The translations under genes and the position numbers were made by a program. The notes below the pieces were generated by a model. That model made no database searches. It was not told the DNA's origin and worked only from the letters and a program-made list of their open reading frames with translations. A stretch of DNA of 64,000 bases, from assembly GCF_003334385.1 (NCBI RefSeq), contig NZ_QOWN01000015.1; one strand, written 5' to 3'. Below are positions 54,360 to 59,020 of this stretch, in pieces (position 1 is the stretch's first letter; every line of letters begins with the position of its first letter). The stretch is from Escherichia coli. Its GTDB lineage: Bacteria; Pseudomonadota; Gammaproteobacteria; Enterobacterales; Enterobacteriaceae.

Positions 54360-55673
<1,314 letters not shown>

Positions 55674-56183
55674 TACCCAATTTTTCTGAATCTAAAAAGC
55701 GCCTGCGGGCGGTTTTTGCATGAGATTAATTAACTGAAAATAAAAGGGATTTATTTTCAGGTGTCCATATAATGTCCATCTTTGAAACAAAAAAGCCCGC
55801 AGTTTTTACGCTACGGGCTTTGTTTTTCTTTGTGACTTGCGTGTGAGGGTGCTACTTTCGACCGAACCTTTGGCAACCGGATAGCGGGGGCTTTCACCCC
55901 CGCTGCGGTTTCTTACGGTTTACACTGCAAGAACGCCGCAAATTCTGACCACATGATGTTAAGTCTGAACTCACACGGCGAACGGTGTATCATCCAGACT
56001 GTCAACAACATGGTTAAGCATAAAATGCTCACGATGATCGTTTTTTGCGGCATAGCGCTTGCTCCTTTTTCAAAGAGGCGCTAACCTTCCACTTGCGAAG
56101 GTTAGATGGTTAGGGCCTCGGGTTAAACAAATGTTTGACTCGGGGCCTTTTCACATCCGGCCTTCAGGTAATCCTTCCAGCCG

Positions 56184-56486
56184 TCAGCCGAAAGGCACCC
56201 GCGCGTAATGTACAGTTTTTGACTGGGAGGTGCAATCGCCCAGGGGGAGGCTGAGTTGATCCCTTCCCCGGTGGCATGATTTGAAAGCGTCTGCGGGGAC
56301 GACTCCCCGTTCTTCGGTGGGTTGCGGACGGCATACGGTTCTCACGACAAACTCGTGCGTCACAAAGGTGGCGCTGCATTCAATGTTGTTGCACTGGTAA
56401 TATTTCTCCCTGATTGTTCCTGTATCGTTGGCGTCGCGGCTTGTTCTGGTGCGGGTACTTGCTCCGCAGTATGGGCAAGGATGCAT
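56184..56486 (-). CDS. ogr: Ogr/Delta-family zinc-finger late transcription activator, 100 aa
   Basis: N-terminus MHPCPYCGASTRTRTSRDANDTGTIREKYYQCNNIECSATFVTHE matches the P2 Ogr C-x2-C...C-x4-C zinc finger and flanking residues. Confidence 0.75.
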   Translation of the reverse strand: MHPCPYCGASTRTRTSRDANDTGTIREKYYQCNNIECSATFVTHEFVVRTVCRPQPTEERGVVPADAFKSCHRGRDQLSLPLGDCTSQSKTVHYARVPFG

Positions 56487-56527: not shown

Positions 56528-57673
56528 CTAGCCAGTCGTGGCGCGCTCTGCTATCCAGTCTGCGATTTTTGCTTCCAGCTCCAGTCTGGTGGTGAAGCCG
56601 CTGTCGTCGATGACGTGCTCAATGCGCGAAATAACCCAGTCCTGATTGTCAATGTCGCTCTTGAACCCGGATACCGTGCCGTGCATCTCCGGATACAGGT
56701 CGGCGCGTCCGCGCGCCAGCGTGATGCTGAATTCTGCTGCACCCCGCTGAAGTTGCTGCCAGCGTGCGGCAGCTGCGCGACGCGCGGCTTCTTCGTTCGG
56801 GTAGGTTTTTCTCAGCACATACACATTGCCTTCTGCGCCTTCCATGTATCCACCCTCCCGTGAACTGCTTTTCTCCGGCTTCTGTGTGGTTTTCGCGTTT
56901 CGCTTTTTCACGTTCACGGCCTTCTTCTGGCCGAACTTTAAATCCAGCCAGTAAGCTTTCACTCCGGTATAGGCTTTTCTGTCAGCAATGCGAAAGCGAT
57001 GACTGTCGCCATCCGAGCGGGTCAGGGCGAATGAGGGGAGGGCGCGCCCGCTGGCTGTCACACCGCCACCCGGCAGAATGAACAGCAGGCATCCGTTTTT
57101 TACGGTGGTTATTGCACCCAGCATGTCAGCCATGCGCGTGAGGAACGAGATGTCGCTTTCCTCTGTCTGGTCTGCATGGTCGATTTCGATATTCATCAGC
57201 ATTTCGCTGATTTGTGCTTTCAGTCCGTAACGGTGCGCGATGGCAGATACCACACGCTCAACGGTCACGTCATGCCAGGAGACTTCGCGTTTCACGTTAA
57301 ACTCTTCGCGAAAATCCGCACTGTTCGCGGATATGGTCAGCTTATCCGGCGGACCTTCGTGGCTCACTTCGTCCACCACAAACGTTCCCTTGCGAGTGAG
57401 GCTTTCACCTTTCCATCCCATCGCCAGCGATAATCGTGTTCCGCGTTCCGGAAGTACCACCCCGCCCTCGGCGTCGTCGATTTCCAGTGTCACCCTGTCA
57501 GCCTCAAAACCCCTGTTGTCTGTCATGGTCAGGCTCATGATGCGCTGCGTGATGTTCTTCAGGCTGGCATCTTTCCCTTCCAGTGTGATAGTGAAGTCTG
57601 GCACCCTAACGGTATCTTCCGCTGCATCCAGTGCGCTGTTGATGTGATGTGTTACTGATTCAGTGATGCTCAT
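56528..57673 (-). CDS. P2 gpD-like tail protein (late control D), 381 aa
   Basis: Resembles P2 gpD (…LSLAMGWKGESLTRKGTFVVDEVSHEGPPDKLTISANSA…, …SGFKSDIDNQDWVISRIEHVIDDSGFTTRLELE…). Confidence 0.8.
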   Translation of the reverse strand: MSITESVTHHINSALDAAEDTVRVPDFTITLEGKDASLKNITQRIMSLTMTDNRGFEADRVTLEIDDAEGGVVLPERGTRLSLAMGWKGESLTRKGTFVVDEVSHEGPPDKLTISANSADFREEFNVKREVSWHDVTVERVVSAIAHRYGLKAQISEMLMNIEIDHADQTEESDISFLTRMADMLGAITTVKNGCLLFILPGGGVTASGRALPSFALTRSDGDSHRFRIADRKAYTGVKAYWLDLKFGQKKAVNVKKRNAKTTQKPEKSSSREGGYMEGAEGNVYVLRKTYPNEEAARRAAAARWQQLQRGAAEFSITLARGRADLYPEMHGTVSGFKSDIDNQDWVISRIEHVIDDSGFTTRLELEAKIADWIAERATTG

Positions 57674-57733
57674 GATATCCCTCCCGTGTGCGTATCATCC
57701 CACGCGTACCTTGTCGTTTCTGTCCGGCTCTGT

Positions 57734-57751
57734 TGTAAAAAAATCCCCACA
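57734..57751. promoter_or_regulatory. TGT-N12-ACA dyad, the signature of Ogr-dependent P2 late promoters, in the D/FI divergent intergenic region
   Basis: tgtaaaaaaatccccaca; centre is about 85 bp upstream of the FI ATG (57827) and about 70 bp upstream of the D ATG (57673). Confidence 0.45.
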
Positions 57752-57826
57752 GCCCGCATCAGGTGAGGGCTGTGCGCCAATGGTGGATTATTCAGGCGAG
57801 CATAAACACAACTGATGGTGAATCGT

Positions 57827-59020
57827 ATGGCTGAAAAACGATTTCACGGTGTGCGCGTCACGGAGAATACCGACCTTGTGACGGCCATTAATGACGTTGA
57901 TTCCAGCGTCATTGGTATTGTTGCCGTTGCAGATGATGCGGATACCGGGCAGTTCCCCCTTAACAAGCCAGTGCTGATTACCCGTGTATCTTCTGTTCTG
58001 GGGAAGGCCGGGAAAGCGGGCACGCTTTATAAGGCCCTTAAAGCGATATCTGACCAGGTCAGTACACGGGTGATTGTCGTTCGCGTGGAGGCGGCAAAAG
58101 AGGGGGCTGAGAATAAAACACAGGATCAACTGGTCATTGGTACCACGGAAGAAGACGGAAGCTACAGCGGTATGCAGGCGCTTCTGGTTGCCGAACAGAT
58201 GGAAGGTATTGGTTGCCGACCCCGCATTCTTGCCGCTCCGGGCCTTGAATCGGATGCTGTCACGGCTGCACTGGTGACTGTTGCCGGAAAAATGCGCGCA
58301 TTTGCGTATTCCGGCTGCCCTGGCTGCACAAAACCGTCCGATGCTATTGCGTTCCGTAAAAAGATTTCCGGTCGCGAAATCATGCTTCTGTGGCCTGATT
58401 TCATTGCGTTCAACCCGGTGTCCGGTAAAAACGAAACCTTCCCGGCTGCGGCGTATGCGTGCGGTCTTCGTGCCCGACTCGACCATGAACAGGGCTGGCA
58501 TCGCTCCCTTTCTAACATGCCTGTGAAAAATGTTCTTGGGGTGTCAGCGTCTGTTTCCTGGTCACTTCAGGATGAAAACAGCGATGCCAACACGCTGAAC
58601 AACAGCGAGGTGACCACTCTTATTCACCAGGGCGACGGCTCCTTCCGTTTCTGGGGTAACCGTACGCCGGAAACTGCGGAGTACATCTTTGAGGTGTACA
58701 CACGTACGGCGCAGCAACTGGCTGACACCATTGCGGAGGCGCAACTTCAGATAGTGGATTCACCGCTTACGCCTGCCAATGCTAAGGATGCCGTGAGCGC
58801 TATCAAGGCAAAGCTGGATGCACTGGTGACAGCCGGAAAACTCATCGGGGCTGAGTGCTGGTTCGATATCATCGACAACGGCACAACCAGTCTTCGTCAG
58901 GGCATTGTGCGTATTCGCTACAAATACACGCCTGTTCCGCCGATGGAGTGTATGGAACTCTATCAGACGTTTACCGACGAGTTCTTCAGCTCTGCTTTTG
59001 CATCTCTTGGAGGTAGCTAA
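57827..59020 (+). CDS. Contractile tail sheath protein (P2 FI-like), 397 aa
   Basis: MAEKRFHGVRV..., FPLNKPVLITRV, DHEQGWHRSLSN, FRFWGNRT, YTRTAQ motifs match P2 FI; start trimmed to ATG 57827. Confidence 0.9.
   Translation: MAEKRFHGVRVTENTDLVTAINDVDSSVIGIVAVADDADTGQFPLNKPVLITRVSSVLGKAGKAGTLYKALKAISDQVSTRVIVVRVEAAKEGAENKTQDQLVIGTTEEDGSYSGMQALLVAEQMEGIGCRPRILAAPGLESDAVTAALVTVAGKMRAFAYSGCPGCTKPSDAIAFRKKISGREIMLLWPDFIAFNPVSGKNETFPAAAYACGLRARLDHEQGWHRSLSNMPVKNVLGVSASVSWSLQDENSDANTLNNSEVTTLIHQGDGSFRFWGNRTPETAEYIFEVYTRTAQQLADTIAEAQLQIVDSPLTPANAKDAVSAIKAKLDALVTAGKLIGAECWFDIIDNGTTSLRQGIVRIRYKYTPVPPMECMELYQTFTDEFFSSAFASLGGS

Follow-up and report, generated by a model that had tools for sequence, protein, structure and literature searches.

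A hok/sok-type cassette at the ogr-proximal end of a P2-like prophage integrated at the serS terminator of Escherichia coli

In the 64,000-nucleotide stretch of Escherichia coli DNA analyzed here (the window), a gap of about 510 bp separates serS from ogr, a late activator gene of phage type, and the question is what this gap holds. A sequence-only reading had described positions 55721-56183 as structured, non-coding DNA at a junction of core genome and phage, in which the attachment core and one or more terminators should lie. We find that the gap is very probably explained by four things together: integration of a P2-like phage at the serS terminator, a phage attachment arm, the ogr terminator and a hok/sok-type cassette. 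The cassette is of a kind already known, an ordinary type I toxin-antitoxin module of the hok/sok type. The genes that frame the gap are as follows.

54381-55673, plus strand: serS, on the host side of the window together with rarA
56184-56486, minus strand: ogr, late activator ORF of 100 aa, with NCBIfam and PHROG matches over residues 1-64
56528-57673, minus strand: gene D

Beyond D come tail genes; they belong to a P2-family prophage that continues past the end of the window. The far prophage end, outside the window, was read in a proxy, E. coli S1-CAM-02-A, which is the nearest public sequence (99.7% identical over 55600-56300, and 99.2% across the shared 10.4 kb). The proxy prophage is about 39.3 kb long, and its gene map runs from ogr and D at one end to int adjoining dmsA at the other, with the integrase gene at the prophage end, 300 bp short of dmsA. 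That gene, a 'phage integrase' by annotation only (proxy locus L001, 40310-41302), stops 90 bp short of the attR core. The interval 55721-56183 is the ogr-proximal (left) end of a P88/P2-like prophage (Peduoviridae) and is phage DNA throughout; the possibility raised at the outset, that the whole of it is native chromosome, was not borne out. Within 56528-59020, D and ogr are on the strand opposite to the tail sheath and tube genes. This divergent arrangement is as in phage P88 (Xuanwuvirus), whereas in P2 both genes run in the same direction as the tail sheath/tube (F) operon.

The host side of the junction consists of two overlapping features.

55695-55717, plus strand: serS rho-independent terminator, a host/phage hybrid (attL), AAAAAGCGCC-TGCG-GGCGGTTTTT
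55702-55711: attachment core CCTGCGGGCG, a 10-bp identity of attL, attR and the empty attB

As the sequence-only reading had anticipated, a comparator was needed to place the boundary. Comparison with an insert-free serS-dmsA interval (a K-12 derivative, L002) and with the far prophage end put the breakpoint region at 55702-55717, and across 5426 complete E. coli genomes the match to the window stops at 55717. The far end was also searched for a direct repeat of the breakpoint, as had been proposed, and CCTGCGGGCG was found there in the proxy: the core is repeated at 55702-55711 of the window and at L001 41392-41401, and occurs as a single copy in the empty attB. The junction reads AAAAAGCGCCTGCGGGCGCTTTTTTTGTC at the empty site, AAAAAGCGCCTGCGGGCGGTTTTTGCATGAG in the window and GTTAAATCTCCTGCGGGCGCTTTTTTTGTC at the far end of the proxy prophage. 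The P2-like prophage does start between serS and ogr, as had been supposed, but its breakpoint falls just outside the interval first assigned to it. The core, which had been expected inside that interval, lies 10-19 bp upstream of 55721, so that 55721-56183 contains no host DNA.

The core CCTGCGGGCG supplies the serS terminator hairpin with its loop and its 3' half, and tyrosine-integrase recombination there would put the prophage into exactly those parts of the terminator. The native serS terminator has a hairpin of 10 pairs (-15.4 kcal/mol) and then U7; its hybrid counterpart in the lysogen has one pair fewer, a folding energy of -12.5 kcal/mol and U5. According to these folds, prophage insertion is predicted to leave serS with a weaker, hybrid terminator. 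Two larger hairpins had been proposed as candidates for the serS terminator, and neither is: the terminator is the small hairpin at 55695-55717, itself the attachment site. It was missed by a terminator scan, being under the 5-pair GC criterion of that program. A second exact copy of the core on the minus strand, at 9962-9971, lies inside a 404-aa ORF without terminator context and was set aside as a chance match.

The serS-dmsA interval is intact in 5072 of the 5426 genomes, which leaves about 6.5% with an occupied or disrupted site; the whole arrangement seen in the window is present in 24 genomes. Our literature search on serS/dmsA prophages found no paper on an attachment site in the serS terminator. 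An intact attP of a related phage has 19 bp in common with attB. It was found in the IncC plasmid pC-Ec2-KPC (NZ_MK439959.1; L014 1261-1500), in a P2-like segment where int, the intact attP, hok, ogr and D are contiguous. Since attP is intact in that record, the phage there is not integrated via this attachment site.

Rightward of the core, the phage sequence begins with an attachment arm and a terminator.

55722-55761, minus strand: IHF-like site, aligning with the IHF protein_bind feature of P2 attP (NC_001895 24324-24357)
55735-55761: AT-rich palindrome CTGAAAATAAA-N5-TTTATTTTCAG, within the IHF-like site
55761-55779, minus strand: two direct integrase arm-type repeats, ATGGACA-N4-ATGGACA (GTGTCCATATAATGTCCAT)
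55792-55821, both strands: bidirectional intrinsic terminator (aaagcccg...cgggcttt), 11 pairs and then a T-run, with T-runs on both strands

The palindrome is preserved in the R14 prophage, STEC1012, P88 and Chuche despite changes on both of its arms, and the same four also carry the tandem arm repeat. The motif TGTCCAT occurs twice per attachment arm; in the proxy, the copy in the int-proximal arm is at L001 41277-41295, inside the 3' end of int. The arm repeats of the window align with the annotated P2 Int arm site, and together with the IHF-like palindrome they constitute a predicted P2-type attachment arm. P2 attP (NC_001895) has the same order, spacing and motifs, namely the ogr terminator, TGGACA-type arm repeats, an AT-rich IHF palindrome and the core, and in both phages the integrase gene lies beyond the core; the NC_001895 annotation also lists Cox sites and int. 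The two differ in their core and chromosomal target, which is the serS terminator here and the loc sites in P2, and in what precedes the terminator: ogr is followed directly by it in P2, whereas a hok cassette intervenes in the window phage.

The hairpin at 55792-55821 had been noticed from the letters and is where it was said to be, with T-runs on both strands and a fold well below shuffled sequence (z -4.0 on the plus strand, -4.3 on the minus strand). Its position is that of the P2 'terminator for ogr transcript and F operon', and by this likeness it would end the hok mRNA and ogr/late read-through on the minus strand and, on the plus strand, would catch serS read-through as a backstop. Terminator-like sites as a class are not above chance in the interval (2 vs 1.6 expected). 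Rfam matches to Thr_leader (both strands, E 0.03-0.07) and STAXI (E 0.87) were rejected as chance matches to the terminator hairpin.

Between this terminator and the 3' end of ogr, the following features were assigned.

55786-56200, minus strand: hok-type mRNA of about 413 nt, with a probable 5' end at G56200 and a probable 3' end in the U-run 55794-55786
55847-55866, minus strand: fbi-like 3' element UCGGUCGAAAGUAGCACCC, paired with mRNA nt 1-17 in the minimum free energy (MFE) fold and aligned with the R1 fbi
55882-55905, minus strand: post-stop hairpin gcggggg...cccccgc, directly after the hok stop codon and within the hok mRNA
55913-56053, minus strand: hok toxin ORF, 46 aa, MPQKTIIVSILCLTMLLTVWMIHRSPCEFRLNIMWSEFAAFLQCKP, supported by Pfam, PHROG and RefSeq
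56067-56062, minus strand: hok Shine-Dalgarno (SD) sequence AAGGAG, in a conserved hairpin with CCUC (helix 8)
56059-56087, plus strand: predicted Sok promoter, TTGCTC-17 nt-TAACCT
about 56093-56151, plus strand: predicted Sok-like RNA of about 59 nt with approximate ends, complementary to hok mRNA nt 50-108
56151-56165, minus strand: conserved SD-like GAAGG plus AUG in the leader, in the window with UGA directly after it (start-stop)
56207-56235, minus strand: predicted hok promoter, TTGCAC-17 nt-TACATT, within the 3' end of the ogr ORF

It had been stated that 55721-56183 contains no ORF of 60 aa or more, and this is correct; only a 71-aa out-of-frame ORF inside ogr touches its right edge. 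That the DNA is non-coding does not follow from it, and the claim fails on the 46-aa ORF at 55913-56053, which matches Pfam PF01848 (HOK_GEF; E 2.3e-6) and PHROG 251 ('MokW-like host killing'; E 4.6e-19) and carries the RefSeq label 'Hok/Gef family protein' (WP_001135720.1). Among NCBIfam models HokA matches best (37.9 bits against a cut-off of 89), and the Hok model also matches, below its cut-off. The toxin had no match in PADLOC or in a PDB sequence search. The hok ORF is under purifying selection, with dN/dS of 0.16-0.28 against its homologues at dS of up to 1.8. Two plus-strand ORFs, 55953-56084 (43 aa) and 56059-56208 (49 aa), were rejected as antisense shadows of hok and its leader.

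Conservation of the RNA was examined in 14 aligned cassettes, which include those of P88, Chuche, another P2-like phage, two Stx phages, an O157 'plasmid' contig, the urease island of strain 132, two IncI plasmids, pBone8_2 (a 23-kb record deposited as a plasmid) and the three tandem copies of STEC1012. The transcript from 56200 to 55788 folds at -177.1 kcal/mol, compared with -120.0 +/- 5.6 for shuffles (z = -10.1). Its 5' GGGUGCCUUUCGGCU and 3' GCACCC are invariant among the 14 cassettes, and the whole structure is 84% paired across them vs 37-45% in slid controls. The fbi helix is 93.7% paired and has five pairs with one-sided, wobble-compatible changes; no double compensatory changes were seen in the fbi or tac pairings of the 14 cassettes. 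The helix joining the start-codon region to the 3' part of the ORF is 99.3% paired. The post-stop hairpin (helix 15; -23.6 kcal/mol, z -4.3) is 100% paired, with four pairs changed on both sides. It had been correctly picked out from the letters, although it sits about 11 nt to the right of where it was placed, and it had been offered with the aaagcccg...cgggcttt hairpin as a possible phage-end terminator. That description holds for 55792-55821, which matches the P2 ogr terminator. Both hairpins are parts of the hok mRNA. The gcggggg...cccccgc hairpin is not a terminator; it is a conserved internal element of the message.

The folded mRNA thus has the 5'-3' fold-back closure typical of hok mRNAs. 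An alternative 5' stem with nt 47-59 (12 pairs, 99.4% paired) is invariant and without covariation, and when the 3'-truncated mRNA was folded, the MFE structure did not make the expected switch to the tac stem. Rfam RF01794 (sok / hok leader) matched 56200-56043 over model positions 1-157 end to end, with an E value of about 3.2e-9 and a score of 48.3 bits, which is under the gathering score of 59. The Rfam 'sok' model really models the hok leader in sense orientation, and the match is on the hok-sense strand. Every cassette keeps the hok -10 element, TAnATT, and its spacing to the GGGUGCC 5' end is constant.

A Sok-like antisense RNA opposite the leader is predicted. Its terminator hairpin (56112-56149) has 17 bp followed by UUUU and is conserved (helix 5), the RNA folds at -30.7 kcal/mol (z -5.3), and in the locus alignment its position equals that of R1 Sok. 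The Sok -10 (AGGTTA in mRNA sense) is invariant in the 14 cassettes, and the -35 is either TTGCTC or TTGACT. Both predicted promoters, hok and Sok, match the sigma-70 consensus weakly, and neither was reported by the promoter scan.

The reference for the locus alignment was a hok locus fetched from an IncF plasmid by means of a 180-nt sequence (100% match), which we take to be of the R1 type. The window locus is collinear with it, element by element. By this alignment the cassette appears to share with R1 hok/sok (parB) a Hok/Gef membrane toxin, an mRNA of about 400 nt and a predicted antisense RNA opposite the leader, in the common order of tac-like 5' end, Sok-target hairpin, SD hairpin, ORF, post-stop hairpin, fbi and terminator. 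It differs from R1 in several respects. The toxin has 46 aa rather than 52, nucleotide similarity is low, a mok frame is missing from the homologous position, about 25 nt separate the end of the Sok target from the hok SD downstream of it, the scores are under the curated Rfam and NCBIfam thresholds, and the locus is borne by a prophage and not by a plasmid. The hokW-sokW locus of the Stx2 prophage Sp5 of E. coli O157:H7 Sakai (PMC8621323) is also prophage-encoded, with its antisense RNA directed at the 5' UTR, and PHROG 251, with its 'MokW-like host killing' label, is the best phage-family match of the window toxin; HokW, however, has 51 aa and belongs to a lambdoid phage, and the 46-aa type of the window is a different allele group. 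The K-12 loci hokA-E encode the same protein family, of which HokA is the best NCBIfam match, yet the score is far under the equivalog cut-off, the window locus is on a mobile element, and K-12 has no hok locus at the serS site.

Homology to an island-borne cassette covers 55786-56237, that is, from the terminator to the -35 element. P88-type Ogr has 86 aa, and the window Ogr follows it as far as about residue 83; another 14-17 codons then carry the ORF across the hok promoter into hok mRNA nt 1-17. By this alignment, the native ogr stop codon was lost at a recombination joint with the hok cassette. Other P88-like phages have a different hok allele in the same slot. Of 5426 complete E. coli genomes, 736 carry related cassettes, as do 198 phage records (mostly Stx phages) and 33 plasmid records. 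The 46-aa type adjoins lom in Stx phages and ogr/att in P88-like phages, and the same 450-bp cassette is found without the attachment site in Stx phages, IncI plasmids and the urease island.

In E. coli STEC1012 (CP061270.1; L013 1486-2888; also L015), three tandem hok cassettes lie directly after serS at the same attachment site; the serS-proximal copy has an allele of the 'MSQKSL' type, and the two that follow it have 'MPQKTI'-type alleles. Beyond them come tail genes, and ogr and D were not seen within 7.5 kb. It has been reported that hok is enriched in prophages and forms islets of 2-6 copies, 98% of which hold one cluster only (bioRxiv 10.1101/2025.08.07.668861), and because of this the mixed-allele islet of STEC1012 may be unusual. 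In phage Chuche (PP925824.1; L006 1386-2395), a DNA methyltransferase gene and a Com-like gene are also found between att and hok, and because that slot holds them the att-ogr gap of P88-like phages resembles a cargo hotspot.

By homology with R1 hok/sok and hokW/sokW, a working model of the cassette can be proposed. A weak constitutive promoter in the 3' end of ogr would give a stable mRNA of about 413 nt, which would be translationally inert while its 5' end is paired to the 3' fbi and its SD is buried in a hairpin, and which would become active once slow 3' trimming takes off fbi. A short, unstable Sok-like RNA of about 59 nt would pair with leader nt 50-108, leading to decay (by RNase III in the paradigm) and blocking expression. 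Sok synthesis could stop on prophage loss, on prophage induction or when an infecting phage shuts off host transcription; the 46-aa membrane toxin would then be made and would depolarise or lyse the cell.

The same module could have a main role other than prophage maintenance, as an auxiliary lysis factor or in abortive-infection defence, and we consider this possible, if unlikely. R1 hok/sok is said to provide abortive-infection defence against T4. In the lysis version, late transcription at induction would cross the cassette, outrun Sok and yield Hok, for which the placement of the cassette upstream of a P2-type ogr terminator and the entry of the ogr ORF into hok mRNA nt 1-17 both speak. 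The hokW-sokW locus of Sp5 lends it further weight as a working type I system that aids phage release on induction, helping Sp5 release after mitomycin C (PMC8621323), but HokW is a different Hok, of 51 aa. A defence role is at odds with the empty PADLOC search, and hok is reported as not enriched near defence systems (bioRxiv 10.1101/2025.08.07.668861). As an observation on the layout itself, the terminator read as 55821-55792 is reached by ogr/late transcripts only across the whole hok cassette.

The leader of the cassette bears on whether the toxin can be translated at all. Its conserved SD-AUG lies at mRNA nt 36-47. No mok-like frame is conserved in any of the three frames of the 14 cassettes, and in the locus alignment the window has no start codon at the position of the R1 mok AUG. 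Leader ORFs range from 1 to 61 codons across the 14 cassettes: a lone AUG is followed by UGA in the window and by UAG in the IncI copies, most of the rest have 8-25 codons, and a single allele has 61. At 56151-56156 (minus strand), the AUG-UGA arises because the window has A where the family consensus GAUGUGGAAAGG has G; this substitution also costs the alternative 5' stem one pair and turns the Sok U-tail from UUU into UUUU.

Most chromosomal hok loci of K-12 are decayed and silent, and the window cassette might be a relic of that sort as well, its RNA still folding and its Hok untranslatable since the mok-type frame is gone. In R1, for which the hok/sok mechanism has been reviewed and retested, hok can be translated only when mok is translated as far as the hok SD (PMC9841398); the window leader ORF is a single codon, with no start codon at the mok position, and one homologue, pBone8_2, carries a frameshifted hok. 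Against such a relic, the Hok ORF is intact in 13 of the 14 cassettes and keeps its low dN/dS even at the highest dS, the promoter -10, SD, fbi and Sok hairpin are intact, and the lack of mok marks the whole subfamily and not this copy alone, which points to mok-independent expression. We judge silence by decay to be quite improbable. Because Hok is under purifying selection, we read the leader as that of a mok-independent hok subgroup rather than as a sign of decay.

That the interval is a non-coding junction and nothing else, made up of the serS terminator, phage-end terminators and the att core without any gene function, is scarcely credible: attachment-arm elements and one true terminator are indeed present and no ORF reaches 60 aa, but these elements fill just 55695-55821, the other 380 bp or so are a selected Hok/Gef ORF in a conserved, strongly folded mRNA, the 450-bp cassette exists elsewhere without an att site, and pairing conservation, the Pfam and PHROG matches and dN/dS refute it as a complete account.

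The preferred reading, a P2-like prophage in the serS terminator with a hok/sok-type cassette next to its attachment arm, gives base-level coordinates for a P2-family attachment site within that terminator. It also illustrates that short-ORF cut-offs disguise type I toxin modules at prophage ends as "structured non-coding DNA". The cassette moves as a discrete unit of about 450 bp among P2-like phages, Stx phages, IncI plasmids and a pathogenicity island. A bolder extension, which we hold to be doubtful and put forward tentatively, is that the 46-aa Hok group is a mok-less form of hok/sok with a conserved SD-AUG 'start-stop', in which Sok, instead of blocking a coupled leader frame, would act far from the hok ribosome-binding site by a standby-site or decay-only mechanism, and that the P88-like slot would couple the toxin to late transcription. 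If this is true, the position of the cassette between ogr and the ogr/late terminator would link toxin output to late transcription at induction. With a whole allele group that lacks mok and a toxin ORF that is still selected, control of hok translation may vary beyond the textbook model.
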